A stretch of DNA of 64,000 bases, taken from positions 19,569 through 83,568 of the forward strand of contig CANMVY010000010.1 of assembly GCA_947501265.1 (NCBI GenBank), given 5' to 3'. Made by a program: the position numbers and the translations under genes. The notes beneath the pieces were generated by a model. That model was given only the letters and a program-made list of their open reading frames with translations, was not told the origin of the DNA and made no database searches. This DNA comes from Bacteroidota bacterium. GTDB lineage: Bacteria; Bacteroidota; Bacteroidia; UBA7662; CANHCV01. Positions 21,359 to 62,596 of this stretch are shown here, in pieces. Within the stretch, counting starts at the first letter, position 1. Each line of letters begins with the position of its first letter.

Positions 21359-21468
21359 TCTACAAATGTAAATAAAGAATAAATAGGGTTATCTTTGGGA
21401 GCAGAAAAGTTTTGGTTTATCTTACTAACCAGTTCCAACCAATTGACGTCCATTTCTGTTATCGAAAT

Positions 21469-23181
21469 ATGCATATTCTTGACTTGTCCTCATTGAAGGG
21501 TTTAAATGGAAAACCCATTCGCAGGCTTTTTCGTTTGCTGAAGCCCGAACGCGCATTTATTAAGCGATTGTACTGGGTTTCTATTCTCTCCGGTTTGTTT
21601 GGCTTGGTCGTTCCGCTTTGCATTCAAGCCATTTTTACGTTCATTCAAGCAGGCCAAGCTTCGGCATCGCTTTGGGTGTTGTTAAGTTTTTTGTTGGTTG
21701 GCTTGCTTATTTCTGGAAACCTAACGCTTACCCAGCTGAACATCAATGAAACGTTGCAACAGCGATTGTTTGCTCGCATTGGTTTTGACTTTACCGAGCG
21801 AATTCCTCGCTGGAGGTCGGATGAGCACCATGCTCCCGAAATGGTGAACCGTTTTTTCGAGGTTTTAACCATTCAAAAATCTCTGTCAAAGGTTTTAATC
21901 GACTTTTTCTCGGCGCTTCTGCAAGTGTTTTTTGGTTTATTACTTCTTTCCTTTTACCATCCATTGTTCATCGTTTTCGGCTTGGCATCCATCGGTACCA
22001 TCATCGTTGCATTTCGAGTTATGGGGCCAAATGGAATGAAATCAAGTCTTGGAGAATCTTCTTCAAAGTATGCCATGGTTTATTGGCTGGAAGAGATCGC
22101 TCGCTTTATTGACGTTTTTAAACTATCCGGCGCGCCCAACCTACCCGTTCAAAAATCGAACGCCCTCGTTGAACAATACGTTGATTACCGAACCGAGCAT
22201 TATAAGATTTTGAGGAATCACTACATCATGCTTATTGGGTTCAAAATTATTACCGTTTCCGGGTTAATTATGTTGGGTACCTTTTTGGTTTTCAATGAAA
22301 TGATCAGCATTGGTCAGTTCGTAGCCTCCGAAATTGTGATGGTTTTGGTGATTCAATCGGTAGAAAAAATCATTTTTTGCATCGATCCAATCTACGATAC
22401 CCTAACGGCAGTGGAAAAATTGGGAGGCATTGCCGATTTACCCTTGGCCGAGCATTCCGGAACAACCGAGGTTACCCCGGGCTCCATCTCCATTTCCCTT
22501 GACCAGGTTGGAGTTCCCCCAACCACCCTATCTTTTACGGCTGAAATTCAAGGAAAAGAGATCGTTGGAATTGTAGGTGCGAATGGTTCGGGTAAAACAA
22601 CCTTGATTAATTTATTAGGAACACGGGTACCCGATACCACCGGTGTATTGAAATATTCGGGAGTTCGCGTTGAAGCGTTACAGATGGATTCTCTGCGTTC
22701 CCGCATTGGTGAAATCATTGAAGATACCGATATTTTTGCGGGAAACGTTCGGGAAAACATCAGTTTGGGTCGCCCAGGTGTAACCGATCAATCGATTCGG
22801 GAAGCTTGCGAAGGATTGGGATGCTGGGACGATTTGCAGCGTTTACCGAAGGGATTGGATACAACCTTAACCCCAGGAGCACCCGGGCTTCCTCGTTCGT
22901 TAGCCATGAAAATTTCCTTGGCCCGGGGCGTGGTAACCCAACCTTCCCTCTTGCTCATTGATGCAACTTTGGTGACTTTAACCCGAAGCGAAAGGACCAA
23001 AATTTTGGATTACCTAACCCGCGCAGACCGCCCGTGGACCTTGATCGCTTCCATCCATCATCATGATTTTATGCAACGATGCGATCAAATTCTTCATCTT
23101 GAAAAAGGAAAAGTTGGGGGCGTTTTCAAATTGGAGGAAGCTGAAAAACAATCGTTCTACACCGAGTTAATGGTTTACTAA
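21469..23181 (+). CDS. T1SS-type ABC exporter (TMD+NBD) with degenerate NBD motifs
   Basis: TM domain, Walker A GANGSGKT, signature replaced by LPRSL, Walker B LLLIDA. Confidence 0.88.
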   Translation: MHILDLSSLKGLNGKPIRRLFRLLKPERAFIKRLYWVSILSGLFGLVVPLCIQAIFTFIQAGQASASLWVLLSFLLVGLLISGNLTLTQLNINETLQQRLFARIGFDFTERIPRWRSDEHHAPEMVNRFFEVLTIQKSLSKVLIDFFSALLQVFFGLLLLSFYHPLFIVFGLASIGTIIVAFRVMGPNGMKSSLGESSSKYAMVYWLEEIARFIDVFKLSGAPNLPVQKSNALVEQYVDYRTEHYKILRNHYIMLIGFKIITVSGLIMLGTFLVFNEMISIGQFVASEIVMVLVIQSVEKIIFCIDPIYDTLTAVEKLGGIADLPLAEHSGTTEVTPGSISISLDQVGVPPTTLSFTAEIQGKEIVGIVGANGSGKTTLINLLGTRVPDTTGVLKYSGVRVEALQMDSLRSRIGEIIEDTDIFAGNVRENISLGRPGVTDQSIREACEGLGCWDDLQRLPKGLDTTLTPGAPGLPRSLAMKISLARGVVTQPSLLLIDATLVTLTRSERTKILDYLTRADRPWTLIASIHHHDFMQRCDQILHLEKGKVGGVFKLEEAEKQSFYTELMVY

Positions 23182-23183
23182 TT

Positions 23184-24515
23184 ATGGGACATCATCGCCA
23201 TCGCTACAACGCTTATAACCACATTTTCGAACGGCAACCCAAAGCCATTTTCAAAGTCACCGGACGATTTGCGCTCATCCTCATGTTCATCACTCTCTTT
23301 TTACCTTGGACCCAAAATTTTCGAGGAAAAGGCAAACTCACCACGTTAAACCCCAGCGAACGTCCGCAAACCCTCAATTCAATCATTCCAGGTAGAATTG
23401 AAAAATGGTACGTCCAAGAAGGGCAACGGGTAAAAAAAGGAGATACCATGTTGTTCATTTCGGAGGTAAAAGAAGATTATTTGGATCCCAACCTCGTGCC
23501 TCGAACCGACGATCAGATTCTCTCCAAAGAAAAAGGAATAGGATCGTATCAATCGAAACTGAAAGCCCTTGAAAATCAGTACAAAGCCATCGAACGAGAT
23601 CAGGTTTTGAAAACAGCCCAATTGCGAAACAAAGTGAAGCAAACCCGGGCAAAGATGATTTCCGACTCTGCCAAAATCGTGGAAGCGGAGGTGAAGTTGG
23701 TGATCGCGAAAAGACAAATTGAGGCCTTTGAAAAAATGTACAAAGATGGCATCAAATCGTTGGCCGAATACGAAGCAAAAAAAGCTTCATTCCAGCAAGC
23801 AATCACCGATAAAACGGCGATGCTGAACAATTACATCACGTCAGAAAACGAATGGATCAACGCCCAGTTGCAACTTAACAATCTGAACAACGAATTTGAG
23901 CAGAAACTGGCGTACAACCAAGCCGATCGATTTGCCCTTGAATCCCAAATTTTCGATGGAGAAGCCACCGTATCTAAAATGCGCATTCAACGCTCCAATT
24001 ACTCCATTCGTACCCAAAACTATTACGTTCTCGCCCCTCAAGACGGTTATGTGGTAAAAGCCCTGAAATCGGGTATTGGTGAAGTGATCAAAGAAGGAAC
24101 CCCTTTGGTAGAAATTCAACCCTATCCTTTCAAAATTGCTGCTGAAATGTACGTCGATCCCTTGAACGTGGCCTTGGTGGAAAAAGGACAGAAAGTACGG
24201 CTTCAATTTGATGGATGGCCAGCCTTAGTTTTTGGCGGTTGGCCCGGCGTTTCGTTTGGAACGTTTGGCGGCGTTGTCGTAGCCATCGACCAAACCATCA
24301 GCGAAAATGGCAAATACCGTTTGCTCATTGCCCCAGATTCTGCCGATAAAGCCTGGCCCAATTTGTTGAAAGTGGGAACCGGAGCGAACGGAATTGGGCT
24401 GTTGAAAGACGTTCCCATTTGGTATGAACTTTGGCGAAACATCAACGGATTCCCACCCGAATACTACAAACCATCTGAACAAGCAGGAAAAGAATCGAAT
24501 AAAAAAGAAAAATGA
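23184..24515 (+). CDS. HlyD family membrane fusion protein
   Basis: LPWTQN, GRIEKWYVQEGQRVKKGD, coiled coil, APQDG, FDGWPA. Confidence 0.92.
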   Translation: MGHHRHRYNAYNHIFERQPKAIFKVTGRFALILMFITLFLPWTQNFRGKGKLTTLNPSERPQTLNSIIPGRIEKWYVQEGQRVKKGDTMLFISEVKEDYLDPNLVPRTDDQILSKEKGIGSYQSKLKALENQYKAIERDQVLKTAQLRNKVKQTRAKMISDSAKIVEAEVKLVIAKRQIEAFEKMYKDGIKSLAEYEAKKASFQQAITDKTAMLNNYITSENEWINAQLQLNNLNNEFEQKLAYNQADRFALESQIFDGEATVSKMRIQRSNYSIRTQNYYVLAPQDGYVVKALKSGIGEVIKEGTPLVEIQPYPFKIAAEMYVDPLNVALVEKGQKVRLQFDGWPALVFGGWPGVSFGTFGGVVVAIDQTISENGKYRLLIAPDSADKAWPNLLKVGTGANGIGLLKDVPIWYELWRNINGFPPEYYKPSEQAGKESNKKEK

Positions 24516-25894
24516 TGCGCATTTTCGGACTACTTTTTCTTTTTTCCGCGATGGGAATTCAGGGGCAAAATAACCAAATCCTTACCCGTGATGCTTTTGT
24601 AGAACAGGTCAAGCAGCACCATCCCATTGCTTTTGCCGCGGGGTTGATGGACAATAAGGCCGCAGCCACAGTGTTGCAGGCCCGCGGAGCTTTCGATCCG
24701 GCTCTTCAAGGAAAATTGAACCAGAAAACCTTCTCGGGAACGCAATACTTCAACCTCTTAGAAACCGGTTTGCTGCTCCCCACCCGAAGTCCCGTAGAAT
24801 TTTCAATGGGTTGGGAACAAAATGCAGGAACGTTCGTCAACCCGGAAGACAAAACACCCAGTACAGGTTTAGGAAGCTTAGGAATTGGAGTTAATTTAGG
24901 AAAAGGGTTGCTGATGGATGCCCGACGGGCTTCCCTTCGTCAGGCATTGCTCTTGCAAGATGCGGCACCATTCCAAATTCAATCCATGCTGAGCGATCTT
25001 TTGGCTCAGGCAGAAATGGATTATTGGAATTGGGCGCTCACGAAGGAAAAACTAGCACTGTACCAAGAAGCGAGTGACCTTGCTTTTCAACGTTTGAGAC
25101 TCATTCGTGGAGCCTTGGAACAAGGCGACCGGCCCACCATCGATACCGTAGAGGCCTATGCCCAATGGCAGTTGCGCCAAATTAACGTTGAACAGGCAAA
25201 AGCCGAATATTTGGCCGCCACCAATTTGATCGAAGCTTACCTGTGGAAAGACGGACTTGTTCCCGATCAATTGCCTTCAGCAACCATTCCACAAAGCATA
25301 CAAGTTGCCGCTTTAACGGCTGTAAATCTTGATTTGCTCACGCAATGGATAACGGGGTTGGATCAACATCCCATTTTGAAAGCCCTGGATGCTGAAATCG
25401 CCATGCAGGAGGTTGAAATCAAATTGAAGAAGGAGAGTTTACGACCTGAATTGAAAGTAAAGTACAACTTGCTCAGTGGAAATCCCGCCCAAATTGGGAC
25501 GTATTTTGAAGACGGCTACAAATGGGGCGGTTCGGCAGCTTTTCCATTGTTGCTTCGTTCCGCCCGAGGAGGCGTTCAAATTTCTACCATCAAAAAACAA
25601 GAATTGGAAGCCAAGCGCTTTCAAAAGAAAAACGAAATCCGAGTGAAAATAGAAACGTATGCTGAACTTTCTGGAATTTTCAATCGACAAACCCAATTGG
25701 CAGAAGAACAAATGAATCGCTTCAAACAATTGTACGATGTAGAACAAATTCGTTTGCTTCAAGGTGATGGATCTGTTTTCTTAATCAATACCCGCGAAGC
25801 AAAATGGGTGGAATCCCGCGAAAAAGTACTGGATCTTTATTTTAAAGTGCGCAAAAACCAAATTTCTTTGCAAAATTCGCGTGGATTATTCTAA
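24512..25894 (+). CDS. TolC family outer-membrane channel
   Basis: Signal peptide, ARGAFDP, helical repeats, GDGSVFLINTRE. Confidence 0.9.
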   Translation: MMRIFGLLFLFSAMGIQGQNNQILTRDAFVEQVKQHHPIAFAAGLMDNKAAATVLQARGAFDPALQGKLNQKTFSGTQYFNLLETGLLLPTRSPVEFSMGWEQNAGTFVNPEDKTPSTGLGSLGIGVNLGKGLLMDARRASLRQALLLQDAAPFQIQSMLSDLLAQAEMDYWNWALTKEKLALYQEASDLAFQRLRLIRGALEQGDRPTIDTVEAYAQWQLRQINVEQAKAEYLAATNLIEAYLWKDGLVPDQLPSATIPQSIQVAALTAVNLDLLTQWITGLDQHPILKALDAEIAMQEVEIKLKKESLRPELKVKYNLLSGNPAQIGTYFEDGYKWGGSAAFPLLLRSARGGVQISTIKKQELEAKRFQKKNEIRVKIETYAELSGIFNRQTQLAEEQMNRFKQLYDVEQIRLLQGDGSVFLINTREAKWVESREKVLDLYFKVRKNQISLQNSRGLF

Positions 25895-25897
25895 CGC

Positions 25898-27073
25898 ATG
25901 CGAGTTTTTCTCTTCACCCATTGGTATCCACCCAACTCAACAGCACCTGCTTTCCGAGCTCAGTCTTGGGTAGAAGGATTTTCGAAGATCGCCAAAGAAG
26001 TCATCGTTATTACTCCCTACCGGGAAGGAAACGAGGCCTATCCAGCAGCATTTCACAACCAAATCCTCATCGAGGAACGAAAAGGTAACATTCGAATCTT
26101 TCGAATGCCCCTTTCCCATCATCCTTTAAGAAGTGCGATCGCACGCATGCCGAACAGCGCTTACCGACGTTTTTTAATGGGGCTTTTTTACTTGCTTCAT
26201 CATAAACCGGTTCACCATTCTTTTGATTTGGACTTTGAAGCACTGGAATCGAAACTGCCTCTTCCTCAGTCCAACGATTGGGTGCTTTCTTCGGGTCCTC
26301 CCTTTATTTTGCACCGCTTGGCATTGCGCTGGAAAATGATGCATGGCTGCCGATGGATTGCTGATTATCGCGATTTATGGACGTTTGGCCGCGATCGATT
26401 CCATTGGGGATGGCTGCGGGAGTGGTGGCAAGAGCGGGTGGATGGAGAATGGGAGCGGCATTGGCTGCACCTGGCCGATCGGCTGGTGACCGTTGGTCCA
26501 ACATTGGCGGCCGATTTAAAGAACCAATTCCCGAAGGTTGAAGTAAGCGTTTTGGAAAACGGGGCTCAGGAAGACATGAAGCAACTTTCTCCTCCCAAAA
26601 GCGGGGGAAATCGGTGGCTGTACGTGGGGAATTTGTACCCCGCCCAAAAATCGATTTGGCGCTTTTTTTCTTTGTTGGACGACGCCATTCGGCAAGATGG
26701 ATTAGATTTTGAGTTGAGGTTTTTAGGCTCCAATCATTACGGCTGTTTGGATGAATTGTTTGCTCAATTCCCTATCGTAGCCCAACATTGCAAATCGTTG
26801 ACCTGGCAAAATCGGCCAGAAATTTTGGATCATTACGTTTGGAGCAACGGCTGCATTCATTTTCCCTACGAAGGAGCGGAAGGCATTCCCAGCGCGAAGC
26901 GCAACGAGTACGCCTGCTCGGGAAGAAAAACGATAACGTATTCGAATCAATCGAAACAGGAAGTGTTGGATTGGGCCAAATCAACCGACTTTCCCGAAGT
27001 TCCTTTGCATTTATTTCGGCAGTACCTGGTTGATTTATGGATCGGCGATCATGTTCGAAGTGATGGGAATTGA
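25898..27073 (+). CDS. Glycosyltransferase family 4-like (GT-B)
   Basis: SSGPP, WIADYRDLW, ENG, YVGNLY, IPSAKRNEY. Confidence 0.8.
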   Translation: MRVFLFTHWYPPNSTAPAFRAQSWVEGFSKIAKEVIVITPYREGNEAYPAAFHNQILIEERKGNIRIFRMPLSHHPLRSAIARMPNSAYRRFLMGLFYLLHHKPVHHSFDLDFEALESKLPLPQSNDWVLSSGPPFILHRLALRWKMMHGCRWIADYRDLWTFGRDRFHWGWLREWWQERVDGEWERHWLHLADRLVTVGPTLAADLKNQFPKVEVSVLENGAQEDMKQLSPPKSGGNRWLYVGNLYPAQKSIWRFFSLLDDAIRQDGLDFELRFLGSNHYGCLDELFAQFPIVAQHCKSLTWQNRPEILDHYVWSNGCIHFPYEGAEGIPSAKRNEYACSGRKTITYSNQSKQEVLDWAKSTDFPEVPLHLFRQYLVDLWIGDHVRSDGN

Positions 27074-27088
27074 GTTAATTGATAACCA

Positions 27089-27382
27089 TCAATCCACCTG
27101 ATCACTAGGGCGGTGAAAGTCTTTGTAATTAGGGCATTCTTCCTTTAAAATTTTTCTCATCTCGTCTCCCCACTTTTCTGTTCCTCGATAACTGTCAGGA
27201 ATTTGGTCTCCATACTTTTCATTACAATCCAACAAAACAGAAGTGTTTGCATCTAGACCATGATATTTGAAATTATCATAACATTCACATGCACTTGGCC
27301 CACAAGAACTTAGGATTGTCACAAGAAAAAATAAAAAAGATCCAAGGAAAACTCCTTTTTTGAGATAAATAGATTTTTTCAT
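27089..27382 (-). CDS. Small Cys-rich lipoprotein
   Basis: Lipobox LSSC, then CEC...C...C; 22 nt downstream of the 625-aa gene. Confidence 0.8.
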   Translation of the reverse strand: MKKSIYLKKGVFLGSFLFFLVTILSSCGPSACECYDNFKYHGLDANTSVLLDCNEKYGDQIPDSYRGTEKWGDEMRKILKEECPNYKDFHRPSDQVD

Positions 27383-27404
27383 TTAGCTTAATTTTTAAAT
27401 TTAA

Positions 27405-29282
27405 TTAGTTAAATGTGACATTGCTTTCGCTTATCCACCCTTCAACATATACATCATTAATCATCTGAGAAATAAAAATGAACCCATTTTCACGTCGAGA
27501 GAAAGTACCACTATCACCTATTTTTAGGAAAATACCTTGTGAATACTCAAAGGATGGTTCTAAATAAACTTCGGTGTTTTCAGTTATTACTGAAAATTGT
27601 CCACTTAGTTCAATCTCATTAAACTCATTAAACTCATTAAAGTAAGATTTAATTTCTTTTCTAAGAATTTCACCATCCTTCAATCCGATAAAATTAACTT
27701 TCTCGCCAGAAGGTAATCGATATGAACCAGTAATCTTATCCTTAGAAATAGATGTTAACTGTAAGAAATTATTATCAAAATTAATTGGGAAAGTAATATT
27801 TTCATTGTACATGGTATTGACAAGGACTTCTTGTTGGCCATCAATTTCTGTACAAACAGCAAACATATTTGAAGAGATAATGCCATCAGATGCGTCAGCA
27901 TTCATGTTTGATGATGAACTATTAATGCTCAACTCCTCAATTTCAGTACTATCAGCATTTAAAAAATACCATGTTCCATTAATCAAGTCTAAATTATTTT
28001 TAGCAAAAGTAGAATATTCGTCTCTTGTAACATTATGTTTAGTTGTCGTTGAGTAGGTGAAAAATGCTAAATACAATGAAGTAATTACTACTGGCAAAAA
28101 CCAATTTTTGAATAACCAAGTATTTTGAAATTTGCTTTCTTTAGACCCTTTGGACTTTTTGTAATCAAAAAAGTATGCCGATACCGCTAAAACGAAGAAC
28201 AGAACTACATAGAAATTTGCTGCGACATAGAATGATTTATAAAAATAATACTCCCTTGATGAAGAAAAGTGGTTTTCATCGTCAACAAATAAACTTGCAT
28301 CCCAAATCTCTCTAAACAAAAAATAATGAAGGACACCAAAAAGCAAATTCTGAGTGAATACAGAGGTTGTTAAATTCAAATTTTTGTATCTTGCTAGAGG
28401 TATTGGAATTAGGAGCCATATAAAAAACAATGGGAAGTCGACAATATTCCAAACTTCTAAAAATGGAATTATTGAAAAAGCAACAATATAAAAAGCAAAA
28501 ATCCAATCACTAGTTAAAAAAAGAAGTATTTTGGAATTATCGTTTTTTATTTCGTCTAAATACTTCTTAATGTATGGAATAGTTTTATCAACTTTCTTTA
28601 ATTCTAAAACATTCATTACAATACGCGTGCTTACTTTTTTCACAAACCATGTTGTGGCCCAAGAAAGTAAACTAGGTGAAATATTATTTTCCTTTAAAAC
28701 AGGATTTACAGAGGTATTGAAAACATGATTTGAGACAGTATTTGCTTCAGCTTTTAACTTTAAGAAAGATTCCAAATCTATATTACCTAATTCAATATTA
28801 GATAAAGATTTTGTTATCGATCTAGTTAAATATAAAAGGTAAATAAAAAGAGTAAATTTATTTAAATAAGAAATTTTCCTGGTGTGGTAATACACCTTGT
28901 AAGCCCAGTTGTTTTTAGGGTCAATTTTTTCCTTATCAATTTTTGGAACTTGACTGGGTTTCCCTTTTTGTTCACTTTTAACTAAATTAATTTTTGTAGA
29001 ACAATTTTGACAAACTACCTGCTCAGGGAATTGTGAAGAAGCATCTTTCTGAAAATTAACTTTCGAATTACACTTTTTGCACGTTACAGTACCTATTTTT
29101 TTTGTGCTCGGCTGAAGATTAGGGGTTGGGACCTTGTCATTGTTAGAGGTCTTTATTGGATTAGTTAATCTGTATTTTTGTTGACAGCTAGGGCACCCAA
29201 TGGTAAATTCATTTGCAGGCGCTTTTGAATAATCAATTTTTATTTTATTGTCGCATTTTTTGCAACTCAAGATTTTTATCAT
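27405..29282 (-). CDS. Double zinc-ribbon / multi-TM / SH3-like membrane protein
   Basis: CKKC..CPSC and CKKC..CQNC pairs, ~5-6 hydrophobic helices mid-protein, LINGTWYF, C-terminal VYLEPS...LKIGD...NGF...EGWI SH3b-like pattern. Confidence 0.8.
   Translation of the reverse strand: MIKILSCKKCDNKIKIDYSKAPANEFTIGCPSCQQKYRLTNPIKTSNNDKVPTPNLQPSTKKIGTVTCKKCNSKVNFQKDASSQFPEQVVCQNCSTKINLVKSEQKGKPSQVPKIDKEKIDPKNNWAYKVYYHTRKISYLNKFTLFIYLLYLTRSITKSLSNIELGNIDLESFLKLKAEANTVSNHVFNTSVNPVLKENNISPSLLSWATTWFVKKVSTRIVMNVLELKKVDKTIPYIKKYLDEIKNDNSKILLFLTSDWIFAFYIVAFSIIPFLEVWNIVDFPLFFIWLLIPIPLARYKNLNLTTSVFTQNLLFGVLHYFLFREIWDASLFVDDENHFSSSREYYFYKSFYVAANFYVVLFFVLAVSAYFFDYKKSKGSKESKFQNTWLFKNWFLPVVITSLYLAFFTYSTTTKHNVTRDEYSTFAKNNLDLINGTWYFLNADSTEIEELSINSSSSNMNADASDGIISSNMFAVCTEIDGQQEVLVNTMYNENITFPINFDNNFLQLTSISKDKITGSYRLPSGEKVNFIGLKDGEILRKEIKSYFNEFNEFNEIELSGQFSVITENTEVYLEPSFEYSQGIFLKIGDSGTFSRRENGFIFISQMINDVYVEGWISESNVTFN
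27615..27641. repeat. In-frame 9-bp tandem repeat (CTCATTAAA x3) encoding FNE x3
   Basis: Directly visible; in the linker before the SH3-like domain. Confidence 0.9.
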
Positions 29283-29306
29283 GGCATGTTTATTAAAAAA
29301 TGGGAC

Positions 29307-29744
29307 TTAAAAATCAAAATCTCCATCATTATCAGAATCAACTGCATAATCATCTGCAATTCCATCTCCGTCGTAATCCATAGCGACAACATCAACATCT
29401 CCATCACCATCAGTATCATATGCCATGGTATCTACCTGACCGTCACCGTCTGTATCCATTGCCACCGTATCAACTTGACCGTCACCATTTGTATCATATG
29501 CCACCGTATCAACTTGACCGTCACCATCTGAATCCATTGCAATTGTATCAACATGCCCATCCCCATCAGTATCATAGGCTATTGTGTCGATAAAACCATC
29601 ATCATCACTGTCTATTGCTATAACATCTGAATCACCATCATTATCAGAATCAATAAAAATGGCATCAGCATACCCGTCATTATTTGTATCTTTTGCGACA
29701 GATTCATTAATTCCATCATTATTTAGGTCTAGGTTTTTATTCAT
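29307..29744 (-). CDS. Acidic protein of 11 tandem 13-aa DxDxDG repeats (putative Ca2+-binding)
   Basis: 5-aa leader + 10 x 13 aa + 10 aa = 145 aa; consensus D-T-D-G-D-G-x-V-D-T-V-A-[YM]; no signal peptide. Confidence 0.88.
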   Translation of the reverse strand: MNKNLDLNNDGINESVAKDTNNDGYADAIFIDSDNDGDSDVIAIDSDDDGFIDTIAYDTDGDGHVDTIAMDSDGDGQVDTVAYDTNGDGQVDTVAMDTDGDGQVDTMAYDTDGDGDVDVVAMDYDGDGIADDYAVDSDNDGDFDF

Positions 29745-29890
29745 TTTTTTAGTTTAAATTTTTATTTACTTTGTTTTTATTTTAGTGTGCATTAATAAAA
29801 TGTACACATTTCAAATTTAATGATTGATATTGATTCAAAAAGTGTTTTAAAAATCCCGATTAGATTATCAGTTTGTGATTTTGGTAGGCA

Positions 29891-30331
29891 ATGGTTAAAT
29901 TTGAGGATATGGAAGGGCAAAATGCTATGGATGTAGGACATAAAATCAGAAGAATCCGAGAAATCAAAGGAATTAAGCAAGAAACAATCGCCAATCAAAT
30001 TGGCATTGCAGTTAGTTCTTTTGGGAAAATAGAGCGAGGGGAAATACAGCTTTCTGTGGAAAGACTTCAGGCTATTGCCGAGGCGCTTGAACTTCCGGTA
30101 AATGCCATCCTTGAATATGATGAAGGAGTGAATAATTTCTTCAACTCGAATACGTTTAACACGACGGGTCTTGGCGGATTCTTCAATACCTCCAATTCTC
30201 ACTTTCATATGAACAATGAGGAAACACTTCTAAAACAAATAGAAGTTCTTATGGGAATGCTAAAAAGCATGGAGCATGTCGTAGCGACTCAGAAAGACCT
30301 TATCAATGAGTTGAGAGGAAAAAACAATTAG
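29891..30331 (+). CDS. XRE-family HTH transcriptional regulator with C-terminal coiled coil
   Basis: VGHKIRRIREIKGIKQE-x-IA...GKIERGE...ERL-x-x-IA-x-AL; start could be a downstream Met. Confidence 0.9.
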   Translation: MVKFEDMEGQNAMDVGHKIRRIREIKGIKQETIANQIGIAVSSFGKIERGEIQLSVERLQAIAEALELPVNAILEYDEGVNNFFNSNTFNTTGLGGFFNTSNSHFHMNNEETLLKQIEVLMGMLKSMEHVVATQKDLINELRGKNN

Positions 30332-30511
30332 GTTTGACAGTCCACTAATTACCTATTTTTATTGAGATAGCTCAAAGTATCTAGGTACCTCTTCCCCTGG
30401 AGCTACTCCTCGGCAAGGCCCAGGCCACTAAAATAGGTTTGATTGTGAGAATGATTTTCATATTAGGTTATTCTAGCCCTTCAAAAAAATCAATGGTTTT
30501 TATTGGGACCG

Positions 30512-30536
30512 CCCTTCGATTGAACTCAGGGATCAC
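30512..30536 (-). repeat. REP-like palindromic element (CCCTGAG..CGAAGGG family)
   Basis: Reverse complement GTGATCCCTGAGTTCAATCGAAGGG resembles copies at 62782-62857 and 63252-63276; degenerate copy at 30408-30428. Confidence 0.65.
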
Positions 30537-30675
30537 CCTTGTCCCTTAGGGATAACTCGAAGCGCCCGCCCCGAGAGAGATCAATTTACCGCATTATTCT
30601 TGGGAGGATTTGCCTTCGCTCCCAAGACAATTTCATTTGATTTTCACTTTCCCTTTCCCCCCCCCAATCCAAAAT

Positions 30676-30701
30676 AAAAAAACCCGGCGATGCCAGGTTT
30701 T
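30676..30701 (-). terminator. Intrinsic terminator of tRNA-Ser
   Basis: Minus strand AAAACCTGGC-ATC-GCCGGGTTTTTTT just 3' of the tRNA. Confidence 0.8.
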
Positions 30702-30712
30702 CAGTTAATTTG

Positions 30713-30800
30713 CGGAGACGGAGAGATTCGAACTCTCGATACGCTTTTGGCGTATACACACTTTCCAGGCGTGCTCCTTCAGCCACTCGGACACGTCTCC
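30713..30800 (-). tRNA. tRNA-Ser(GGA)
   Basis: GGAGACG acceptor stem, TCCGAGTGGCTGAAGGA D-arm, CTGGAAA anticodon loop, long variable arm, GTTCGAATC T-loop; CCA not encoded. Confidence 0.97.
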
Positions 30801-30908
30801 AGGAATGAGGGGCAAAAATAGCTGATTTTTTTAACCCTACCAAGTTTACCCAGAAATAAACCATTTTTTTGCCTTTCTCGTTTTACATTTGTAACTCCAA
30901 TTCAATCC

Positions 30909-31217
30909 ATGATTACCATATCCGAAAAAGCCGCTAACCAAGTAAAAAGCCTGCAAAACAACAAGGCCGTGCGCGTTTCTGTCACCTCCGGTGGCTGTTC
31001 GGGGCTAACGTATCAGCTCGATTTTGTGGATGCCCCCGCCCCCAACGACGAGGTTTTTGTGCTGCACAACATTACCCTTTGTTGCGATAAAAAAAGCTTT
31101 TTCTACCTCATCGGAACCGAACTCGACTTCTCCGACGGACTTCAAGGAAAAGGATTCTTTTTCAATAACCCCAATGCATCCCGCACCTGCGCTTGCGGAG
31201 AAAGTTTTTCCCTCTAA
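30909..31217 (+). CDS. iscA: HesB/IscA Fe-S cluster assembly accessory protein
   Basis: GGCSG, LDFSDGL-x-GKGF-x-F-x-NPNA, TCACGESFS. Confidence 0.93.
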   Translation: MITISEKAANQVKSLQNNKAVRVSVTSGGCSGLTYQLDFVDAPAPNDEVFVLHNITLCCDKKSFFYLIGTELDFSDGLQGKGFFFNNPNASRTCACGESFSL

Positions 31218-60828: not shown

Positions 60829-60856
60829 AAAAGGGCAGCCCATCGGCTGCCCTTTT
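60829..60856. terminator. Bidirectional intrinsic terminator
   Basis: AAAAGGGCAGCC-CATC-GGCTGCCCTTTT between convergent genes. Confidence 0.9.
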
Positions 60857-60875
60857 CTTATTTTCAATTTCGGGT

Positions 60876-62267
60876 TTATTTTCCGACCATTTTGGAAGGA
60901 TCCACCCAAAGATCGAATTCCTCGTTGGTCACATACCCCAAAGTCACGGCGGCTTCCCGCAACGTTGTTCCTTCTTTATGGGCTTTCTTCGCAATTTCAG
61001 CAGCTTTGTAATAACCAATGTGCGGATTCAAAGAAGTGACCAACATCAAGCTGTTATCCAAGTGTTGTTTGATGGTAGGCAAGTTGGGAAGAATTCCATC
61101 GGCGCACTTTTCGGTGAAACTTACGCAAGCATCGCCCAACAAACGAGCACTTTGTAAAACGTTAGCGGCAATTAACGGTTTAAACACGTTCAATTCAAAA
61201 TGTCCGTTTGAGCCACCAATGGAAACGGCAACGTCGTTCCCCATCACTTGAGCGCAAACCATGGTTAACGCTTCGGGTTGGGTTGGATTCACTTTGCCGG
61301 GCATGATGGAAGATCCAGGTTCGTTATCGGGAATAATGATTTCTCCGATGCCGGAACGTGGTCCGGAACTGAGCATGCGAATGTCGTTTCCAACTTTCAT
61401 CAAGGCAACGGCCGACCGTTTTAAAGCACCGCTCAACTCTACCATCGCATCGTGGGCAGCCAAGGCTTCAAACTTGTTGGGAGCGGTCACGAAAGGATAA
61501 CCGGTAAACTCGGCAATTTTTGCCGCCACCAAAACATCGTAACCCTTTGGAGCGTTCAACCCGGTTCCAACGGCTGTACCACCAAGAGCCAATTCTTTGA
61601 CCATTTCCAACGCATTCTTAATGGTGCGCATGGAGTTATCAATTTGTTGAACGTATCCGCCGAATTCTTGCCCCAAGGTCAGGGGTGTAGCATCCATGAA
61701 GTGGGTACGTCCGGTTTTTACAATGTGATCAAATTCCTGGGCTTTCTTACTCAACGAATCGCGCAATTGCTGCATTCCGGGAAGGGTAATTTCCATCACT
61801 TGCTTGTAGGCAGCAATGTGCATGGCTGTAGGATAGGTATCGTTGGAACTTTGGCTTTTGTTCACATCGTCGTTCGGATTCAAAACCTTGGTTTCGTCCA
61901 TCAGCGAACCTCCTTGCATCACGTGAGCACGGTAGGCAACCACCTCGTTCACGTTCATGTTGCTTTGGGTACCCGACCCCGTTTGCCAAATTACCAAGGG
62001 GAACTGATCGTCCAACTTTTTGGTTAGGATTTCATCGCAAACTTGGGCAATCAAATCACGTTTTTCAACAGGTAAAACCCCCAATTCGTGGTTGGCAAAA
62101 GCGGCGGCTTTTTTCAAGTAGGCGAAAGCGTAAATGATTTCCTTTGGCATAGAAGCTTCAGGACCAATTTTGAAATTGTTTCGAGAACGTTCGGTTTGAG
62201 CACCCCAATATTTGTCGGCAGGTACTTTTACCTCGCCCATGGTGTCGCGTTCGATGCGGTAATCCAT
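60876..62267 (-). CDS. fumC: Class II fumarate hydratase
   Basis: [29 protein letters not shown]; start at ATG 62267. Confidence 0.98.
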
Positions 62268-62386
62268 AAGAAAATTTTTTCGCAAAGGTAGGAAATCCGA
62301 ATCATTTACGCAGGAATACCACAAAAATGCTTCGTTAATTTTGGAGAAACGAATTGCCCTTATTACTTTTGAAAAAACACACAACT

Positions 62387-62596
62387 ATGAAAAAAGTATT
62401 TTTCCTCCTTTCTTTGGCCGCTCTAGCGTACGGTTCTACTTCTTGCAAAAAATGCATTGAATGTTCTTATCCTGTTGGCGGTGGTGTTCGCACCCAAGAA
62501 ATCTGCGGAAGCACAACTGCGGTTGACAACGGTAAAGCAACCTTTATTTCTGAAGCCGGTGCCGACAGCGCAAAAGTGGTTTGCGTGGATAAATAA
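62387..62596 (+). CDS. Small Cys-rich lipoprotein (69 aa)
   Basis: MKKVF...STSC-KKCIEC...EIC...VC; TACTTTTG at 62364-62371; own terminator. Confidence 0.82.
   Translation: MKKVFFLLSLAALAYGSTSCKKCIECSYPVGGGVRTQEICGSTTAVDNGKATFISEAGADSAKVVCVDK

Follow-up and report, generated by a model that had tools for sequence, protein, structure and literature searches.

Within a 64,000-nucleotide stretch of DNA from a Bacteroidota bacterium (GenBank assembly GCA_947501265.1, contig CANMVY010000010.1; hereafter the window), a short AT-rich islet between a GT4 glycosyltransferase gene and a tRNA-Ser gene has as its real content a rare two-gene Bacteroidota module, with purifying selection acting on both genes. 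The first gene (29307-29744, minus strand) encodes an acidic repeat protein of 145 residues, and the second (27405-29282, minus strand) encodes a polytopic zinc-ribbon membrane protein of 625 residues. The pair belongs to no named family or system; it is real, rare and uncharacterised. Apart from the generic zinc ribbon that some relatives carry, nothing in the pair scores above threshold in Pfam, NCBIfam, PADLOC or the PDB, and the literature searched, exclusive of supplements, held no description of the pair.

The distribution of the two genes carries this finding. The membrane protein has 12 relatives among 5.8 billion proteins, one of them 97% identical and the others 36-49%, and a profile search for its family retrieved 76 proteins among 1.84 billion representatives. 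Pattern scans identified four loci in a collection of 185,579 species, each represented by one genome, and six more in metagenomes. At every one of these ten loci an acidic homologue lies directly upstream of the membrane-gene homologue, separated from it by 10-24 nt. The ten loci comprise seven distinct sequences, as L013 and L014 equal L008 and L012 is ~99% identical to L011. Some are incomplete or altered: the membrane gene of L006 is split into two open reading frames (ORFs), that of L015 stops after 129 residues and is followed by unrelated GC-rich sequence, and L012 runs to its contig end. The conserved adjacency nonetheless spans three Bacteroidota classes. All named loci come from Bacteroidota metagenome-assembled genomes, and the family occurs mostly in uncultured freshwater and marine members of the phylum. 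Its rarity is apparent from a sample of 400 phylum genomes, none of which matched the membrane-family profile. Close, small acidic homologues lacking the partner were likewise not found there; 20 of the 400 genomes gave only weak matches, within frames of 266-8003 residues. A profile search with the acidic alignment itself is unfit for counting partners: its 128 hits, spread over many phyla, were generic DxDxDG-repeat proteins, and the true orthologues were not among them. The first-pass annotation of this DNA had proposed a four-gene system that also included the neighboring XRE-family regulator and a 97-residue lipoprotein. Co-occurrence holds for the acidic and membrane genes only, since neither of the other two has a counterpart at any of the ten loci.

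Pairwise identities of the acidic and membrane proteins are correlated (r = 0.68, over 36 non-independent pairs). Four pairs of acidic-gene sequences give a ratio of nonsynonymous to synonymous substitution rates (dN/dS) of 0.05-0.13, a fifth pair being nearly identical, and three pairs of membrane-gene sequences give ~0.14. Every antisense frame of the acidic gene yields a poorer dN/dS signal, which settles the coding strand of this repeat DNA.

The membrane protein, whose features are all given here on the minus strand, opens with two predicted zinc ribbons. Ribbon 1 occupies residues 5-37 (29172-29270), with cysteines C7, C10, C30 and C33 in a CxxC-19-CxxC spacing, and ribbon 2 occupies residues 66-97 (28992-29087), with C68, C71, C91 and C94. 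The CxxC...CxxC pattern is strongly maintained: across 13 sequences six of the zinc-ligand cysteines are invariant and two nearly so, with all four of ribbon 2 retained in 13/13. Ribbon 1 scores 21.9 bits against Pfam Zn_ribbon_4 (PF13717, MJ0042-type), for which the cut-off is 30.3; the homologue P0017 passes the same model at 39.1 bits, and P0005 and P0010-P0012 carry it as a precomputed family. Ribbon 2 gives weak matches to DZR and LysW-type ribbons. The ribbons are followed by a conserved basic domain, probably cytoplasmic, at residues 116-250 (28533-28937; isoelectric point (pI) 9.6), which holds most of the family-invariant residues (I-D-P-K-N-N-W-A-Y ... W-F-V-K-K ... P-Y-I-K-K-Y). This domain matches no Pfam family at E up to 5 and has no sequence relative in the PDB, and PDB searches with the family profile and with the N-terminal 115 residues retrieved nothing significant. 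Residues 1-250 as a whole are basic, with 42 Lys and Arg against 20 Asp and Glu.

A transmembrane (TM) region follows at residues ~254-411 (28050-28523), as delimited by a hydropathy scan. It is the least conserved part of the family, the zinc-ribbon/basic region being the most conserved. Of seven zinc-ribbon members scanned, four show five TM helices, and the wider family shows nine; for the window protein it gives four clear helices, and a fifth at ~308-325 is our own reading. The remainder of the protein is an acidic C-terminal domain (residues 412-625, 27408-28049; pI 4.2), the start of which is conserved as K-H-x-V-T..E...F...N....G-x-W-Y-F-L-N-x-D-S-T and which matches no Pfam family. 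About a dozen of the 76 profile relatives have the zinc-ribbon N-terminus. Another ~40, of ~590 residues, have only the TM core and the post-TM domain, with N-termini formed by a short helical pair or Zn_Ribbon_1. Relatives also differ by what is added at the C-terminus, namely SH3_3 (P0010, P0029 and L008), SPOR (P0010), TonB_C (P0036) or MORN (P0047). SH3_3, SPOR and TonB_C act outside the cytoplasm, where they bind the cell wall or outer-membrane partners. These C-termini, together with the Lys/Arg-rich N-terminus and the odd number of TM helices in 4/7 members, make it plausible that the large protein crosses the inner membrane, its zinc ribbons inside and its C-terminus outside; if the ribbons are cytoplasmic, the last 210 residues, which are acidic, would lie in the periplasm.

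To this extent the trans-envelope architecture proposed in the first-pass annotation is supported by hydropathy and charge. The SH3-like domain that formed part of that proposal is not: SH3_3 (PF08239) had no Pfam match in the whole protein or in the isolated C-terminal domain (E up to 5), and an hhalign comparison of the window subgroup with three verified SH3_3 lipoproteins returned a probability of 0.2%, from shallow alignments that leave a divergent SH3 fold possible. The annotation had also recognized no enzymatic domain, and profile scans agree, finding no known one. Bacterial proteins that combine a zinc ribbon, a TM segment and SH3_3 are nonetheless a point of comparison. The homologues P0010, P0029 and L008 carry SH3_3, and the language-model neighbors of P0011 include Zn_Ribbon_1 plus SH3_3 clusters (0.77-0.82, to be taken as leads). 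However, proteins of that type are 170-370 residues long and have no counterpart of the conserved domain at residues 116-250, and no SH3 can be detected in the window protein. The window protein itself was not found in the ESM Atlas, in which P0008 had one match at 0.77 and P0011 the leads just mentioned. A different likeness is offered by PqiA/LetA, in which cytoplasmic zinc ribbons sit on a multi-TM core; the window protein differs in having no PqiA Pfam match and no MCE-protein partner.

The acidic protein is built from 11 tandem units of the form D-x-[DN]-x-D-G-x-[VIA]-D-x-[VI]-A-x, with an exact 13-residue period. The last residue of the unit alternates between Tyr and Met, giving a 26-residue super-period and DNA periods of 39 and 78 nt. 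Its composition is extreme (31% Asp, pI 4.05, 46 Asp and Glu against 2 Lys and Arg), and it has no hydrophobic segment, hence neither a signal peptide nor a TM helix. Orthologues have roughly 6-11 units and share a conserved tail, A-D-D-Y-A-V-D-S-D-N-D-G-D-F-D. The same D-G-D-F-D ending is seen in P0089, a 252-residue metagenome protein that joins a GYF_2 domain to DxDxDG repeats of 13 residues.

Each of the 11 units contains an exact Dx[DN]xDG, the linear motif shared by EF-hand-like, dockerin and thrombospondin type 3 loops. This motif is described as a Ca2+-binding loop with a near-identical binding mode in at least 12 families (PMC3123361). The acidic protein differs from such families, and from RTX proteins, in several respects: it lacks flanking EF-hand helices and the GGxGxD nonapeptide, and it is a free-standing protein of 145 residues with no signal peptide. 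Thrombospondin type 3 repeats, moreover, carry cysteines, of which the acidic protein has none. Against Pfam EF-hand_5 (PF13202) it scores 16 bits, where the cut-off is 25.9, and a PDB profile search with the acidic alignment gave no significant relative. The 26-residue super-period is compatible with a roll of two strands per turn, and a fold resembling the RTX beta-roll may thus be predicted.

Two characterized proteins resemble the membrane protein in layout. ZitP of Caulobacter crescentus is described as a bitopic zinc-finger membrane protein that binds PopZ (PMC5182063, PMC5182065), its zinc ribbon acting as a protein-docking module (PMC5182063, PMC5182065, PMC11135422). As predicted for the window protein, it has a C4 zinc ribbon at its N-terminus, facing the cytoplasm, followed by a membrane anchor and a periplasmic domain. 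It differs in having one zinc ribbon, one TM helix and another periplasmic domain, and its partner, the acidic PopZ, is not encoded next door and lacks Dx[DN]xDG repeats. In GltJ, from the gliding machinery of Myxococcus xanthus, the zinc ribbon (ZnR) is reported to use C5, C8, C28 and C31 and to resemble in structure the PopZ-binding ZnR of ZitP; the same account describes a cytoplasmic adaptor region that includes a GYF domain, a membrane span and a periplasmic TonB-C domain (PMC11135422). Ribbon 1 of the window protein has the same cysteine spacing as this ZnR. P0036, a distant relative of the window protein, combines Zn_ribbon_4, part of the conserved domain and TonB_C, and P0089 joins GYF_2 to the same repeats as those of the acidic protein. 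GltJ differs by its single TM helix, GYF domain, MglA-GTP binding and 17-protein motor, none of which is present here. Moreover, PDB profile and single-sequence searches retrieved neither ZitP nor GltJ, and in the window protein there are about five TM helices and no DUF3426/TonB-C domain. The resemblance is therefore an analogy of layout and mechanism rather than membership of the same family.

By this analogy, we tentatively favor a reading in which a membrane-anchored zinc-ribbon adaptor docks a Ca2+-responsive, polyanionic partner, as ZitP and GltJ dock theirs, although we give it somewhat less than an even chance. The zinc-ribbon/basic N-terminus would stay in the cytoplasm and there dock the acidic protein on the inner surface of the membrane, and the C-terminal domain would reach into the periplasm to contact the cell wall or outer partners, which in this organism may include the Cys-containing lipoprotein encoded alongside. 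At low cytoplasmic Ca2+ the repeats would be unfolded; a rise in Ca2+ would fold them, perhaps into a beta-roll-like rod, such that the pair could couple local Ca2+ or the state of the envelope to a membrane-anchored scaffold. Several lines of evidence point in this direction. The charges are complementary, the 46 acidic and 2 basic residues of the one protein facing the 42 basic and 20 acidic residues in the first 250 of the other. The genes are paired at 10/10 loci, their identities track one another and both are under purifying selection. The CxxC-19-CxxC spacing of ribbon 1 equals that of the GltJ ZnR, and the P0089 fusion hints at a link between these repeats and an adaptor domain.

Other observations weigh against the docking model. 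Ca2+ binding is predicted from the motif, with the EF-hand_5 score below its cut-off, and the zinc-ribbon score of the window protein is likewise under the Pfam threshold. Neither protein has a sequence relative in the PDB, where the searches passed over ZitP and GltJ, and the crude scan calls four TM helices in the window protein rather than five. We infer the docking of the acidic protein on the membrane protein, and the folds of both, from their sequences. The pairing count, moreover, left out the ~40 relatives without a zinc-ribbon N-terminus, and so does not imply that pairing is specific to that N-terminus. Finally, free Ca2+ in the cytoplasm is normally very low, which makes a cytoplasmic protein with 11 Ca2+ sites odd.

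An alternative, raised by the setting of the islet and by the neighbors of related loci, is that the pair is a conflict or anti-phage module. Here the membrane protein would act as a TM effector or as a sensor of envelope breach, and the tethered multi-site Ca2+ protein would detect the Ca2+ influx that accompanies phage injection or membrane damage and trigger shutdown of the membrane. The islet is AT-rich, rare, patchy and strain-specific, as such modules might be. A TPR-CHAT protease gene lies downstream of, or convergent with, the pair at three of the ten loci (L006, L009 and L010), and at two of them (L006 and L009) the pair is flanked by an AAA_14/DUF4143 ATPase gene that matches the PADLOC candidate PDC-S01 at E down to 1e-188; L009 also has an ECF-type sigma gene upstream. 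These CHAT and PDC-S01 neighbors are, however, limited to one subgroup. Elsewhere the surroundings are different: L007, L008, L011, L013 and L014 have a downstream lipoprotein of 455-481 residues that ends in SH3_3 and an upstream Kelch-like secreted protein, four of the five have a 125-residue lipoprotein (the contig of L007 ends), and dnaA lies upstream in L008, L011, L013 and L014. In keeping this setting by dnaA with lipoprotein genes, at 45-78% identity, the five Sphingobacteriaceae-type loci are not island-like. The membrane protein and the downstream lipoprotein of these loci end in almost identical SH3_3 sequence, suggesting domain duplication or gene conversion. The Kelch-like upstream gene (L007, L008, L011 and L015) has just a distant, unlinked homologue in the genome studied here.

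Searches of defense resources add little to this alternative. In PADLOC-DB 2.0 the lipoprotein, membrane and acidic proteins match no family, and the XRE protein matches HTH and control-protein models only, generic matches that count in favor of a conflict module. PHROGs gave one weak match for the large protein, of unknown function (E = 0.0046), and searches of 50,697 phage records, 72,556 plasmids and viral contigs yielded no relative. The pair also has no nuclease, NTPase or other effector domain. The anti-phage role suggested in the first-pass annotation thus finds no backing for any of its three cargo proteins, and we consider a conflict module unlikely.

A second alternative, which we regard as decidedly unlikely, is that the acidic protein is exported in the manner of RTX proteins without a classical signal and folds with Ca2+ once outside the cytoplasm, forming a rod in the periplasm or on the surface; the membrane protein would be its dedicated export or anchoring factor. 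An acidic protein rich in Ca2+ motifs and without an N-terminal signal has the general profile of a type I secretion substrate, and the acidic protein has a conserved C-terminal tail in addition. An operon of ABC, HlyD and TolC-like genes lies immediately upstream (21412-25894), and lipoprotein or secreted-protein genes adjoin the pair at many loci. However, the GGxGxD nonapeptide of RTX and type I substrates is absent, the upstream operon is core genome (90% identity with the congener G002), ABC, HlyD or TolC genes occur near the pair at 0/10 related loci, and the membrane protein has neither an ATPase nor a known translocase domain.

Two further readings assign the Ca2+ sites a role inside the cell, and both are improbable. 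In the first, the pair is a sensor of envelope breach: an RTX-like rod held in the cytoplasm on the zinc-ribbon membrane protein would fold when external Ca2+ leaks in through phage injection, pore formation or wall damage, and would switch the membrane protein and, in some lineages, the TPR-CHAT protease. If this were true, the pair would be an immunity module of two genes, devoted to reading Ca2+ influx as a sign of danger to the bacterium. In the second, the pair serves divalent-cation homeostasis, the membrane protein being a channel or transporter for Ca2+ or another metal and the acidic protein a cytoplasmic buffer akin to calsequestrin. The 11 Dx[DN]xDG sites within 145 residues and the polytopic membrane core are consistent with homeostasis, as is the occurrence of the DNA in lake and freshwater metagenomes. 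Set against it, the membrane protein matches no transporter family, conservation is lowest in the TM region and highest in the zinc-ribbon/basic domain, and the extreme rarity of the pair speaks against a general role. Lastly, low-complexity repeat DNA yields long ORFs on both strands, and in L008 an antisense ORF exceeds the acidic one, but the idea that these are unrelated ORFs in AT-rich DNA, or that the acidic ORF is no gene, can safely be dismissed in view of the adjacency at 10/10 loci in three classes and of a dN/dS that is low in the acidic frame and poorer in all antisense frames.

In the window, the pair is embedded in a compact locus. The ORF map and GC scan bear out the outline given in the first-pass annotation, namely an AT-rich block with three tightly spaced minus-strand genes and a divergent XRE gene. 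The acidic gene, the membrane gene and a gene for a small Cys-rich lipoprotein of 97 residues (27089-27382, minus strand), the third of the local operon, are separated by 24 and 22 nt respectively. The lipoprotein stop lies 15 nt from the end of the GT4 gene at 27073, and the XRE-family regulator of 146 residues (29891-30331, plus strand) is divergent from the acidic gene across 29745-29890. GC content in 500-nt windows is 0.27-0.37 over 27000-30250 and 0.43-0.52 in the flanks. The 3.3-kb block as a whole has a GC content of 0.323, compared with a mean of 0.432 for the 2.33-Mb genome (standard deviation 0.030 for 3-kb windows); only 0.88% of 9017 3-kb windows of the genome have a GC content ≤0.33, and the islet is one of 11 AT-rich regions. 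Its DNA recurs in lake and freshwater metagenomes, with contigs from a second study covering 27933-30281 at 98-99% identity. Contigs from two metatranscriptome libraries match parts of the membrane, acidic and XRE genes without mismatch, at 28771-28921, 29411-29573, 30125-30299 and 30228-30488; as DNA carry-over is possible and contigs cannot demonstrate a transcript, these are at most a weak hint of expression.

The divergent intergenic region contains a single Bacteroidetes-type -7 motif (consensus TAnnTTTG), on the minus strand at 29812-29819. Between it and the acidic gene lies a palindrome with 9-nt arms (29785-29807), a candidate operator. The 24-nt and 22-nt gaps contain no -7 motif, and co-transcription of the three minus-strand genes is therefore likely. 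A sigma-70 promoter and terminator scan performed at or below the level of shuffled sequence, the method being ill-suited to Bacteroidota. The lipoprotein has a hydrophobic stretch at residues 10-28 and, on sequence inspection, a lipobox L-S-S-C27. It has only three database relatives, one of them 99% identical; S-C-G-P-S-A-C is conserved in 3/3 sequences, and C32, C34, C53, C83 and I-P-D-S-Y-x-G are conserved too. The outer location given to it in the first-pass annotation is putative. From its distribution, the lipoprotein is not a conserved partner of the pair.

The regulator, which scores 39.3 bits against Pfam HTH_3 (cut-off 23), belongs to a family in which a helix-turn-helix (HTH) domain is followed by a C-terminal helical region, and alignment with its paralogues suggests that it starts at M7 (29909). 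Two further paralogues are found in the genome, at C12 (41273-41722) and C17 (29469-29828), each divergent from AT-rich genes of unknown function (GC 0.28-0.33). In G002, the orthologue of the C12 paralogue retains 80% DNA identity across the XRE gene only and faces different AT-rich lipoprotein genes, as does a second XRE homologue of that genome (G002 loci L037 and L039). In all copies examined (5/5), the genes on the divergent side are AT-rich (GC 0.28-0.35) and encode small secreted proteins, lipoproteins or unknown proteins. An operator common to the three XRE-cargo intergenic regions was not found. Since the XRE gene is conserved between species while its cargo differs, it is best seen as a recurrent neighbor of variable inserts and not as a component of the pair; XRE plus swappable AT-rich cargo looks like a recurrent cassette in the genus. 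The dedicated regulator envisaged in the first-pass annotation is accordingly one of three paralogues, each beside a different AT-rich cargo.

The block is accessory rather than core, as had been proposed. A search of 40 relatives, two of them congeneric genomes (91% and 99% complete), did not find the membrane protein, and in the congeners G001 and G002 the sole matches to the islet DNA were an XRE paralogue and a dispersed repeat of 35 nt. Horizontal acquisition is the best explanation. No clean empty site is seen, both congeners showing contig ends or rearrangement at the position of the islet. In G001 the GT4 gene ends ~140 nt from a fumarase gene that in the window lies at 60876-62384 (matching stretch 60829-62596); the G001 contig corresponding to the other side begins at window position 31087, and the G002 contig ends at 25930. 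The 30 kb from tRNA-Ser to fumarase hold housekeeping genes (SurA, PdxJ, PaaA, prolyl oligopeptidase, MazG and DegT). What sets the window apart from G001 is thus a rearrangement of the chromosome, and the islet sits at one of its junctions. The region 26995-60828, which in the window separates the GT4 end from the fumarase gene, measures 33.8 kb and is mostly housekeeping, with a 34-nt palindromic terminator (60829-60862) at the far junction; with the G002 contig break at 25930 as well, it is a rearrangement hot spot.

The tRNA-Ser(GGA) gene (30712-30800, minus strand) has its 3' end toward the islet, ~380 nt from the XRE stop. The first-pass annotation had called the islet tRNA-linked, which is correct as regards adjacency. 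Atypical composition and absence from relatives are both as expected of a tRNA-integrated island; however, there is no integrase among the ORFs and no direct repeat of the tRNA 3' end within 26500-31000 or at the far side of the islet, and the only candidates for att-type direct repeats were AT-rich and no more than expected by chance. The link to the tRNA is thus one of adjacency only, and tRNA-targeted integration is not supported. Between the XRE gene and tRNA-Ser, at 30505-30545, lies a GC-rich element of ~35 nt with ~9 copies on 8 contigs of the genome, some in tandem, and 11 matches in G001, resembling repetitive extragenic palindromic (REP) sequences or miniature inverted-repeat transposable elements (MITEs). 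On the other side of the islet, the core operon at 21412-27073 encodes an ABC exporter, a HlyD-type membrane-fusion protein, a TolC-like outer-membrane factor and the GT4 glycosyltransferase. GT4 is its least conserved part, with 81-84% DNA identity to G001 and just 33 nt found in G002. A protein with a type IX secretion system (T9SS) sorting domain is also encoded in the window, which, together with the Bacteroidota origin of all named related loci, places the host in that phylum.

The family is very rare and its hosts are mostly uncultured, which limits its practical weight. The analysis nevertheless defines two domains without family assignment, the cytoplasmic domain at residues 116-250 and the post-TM domain common to ~40 proteins. 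If docking of the acidic protein on its membrane neighbor is correct, the principle represented by ZitP and GltJ, whereby an anchored zinc ribbon recruits a cytoplasmic partner, would reach Bacteroidota. The type of partner would be unusual, a free-standing tandem array of Ca2+ loops encoded beside its own anchor, and the pair would offer a compact, genetically linked system for Ca2+-dependent folding in, or at the edge of, the bacterial cell.

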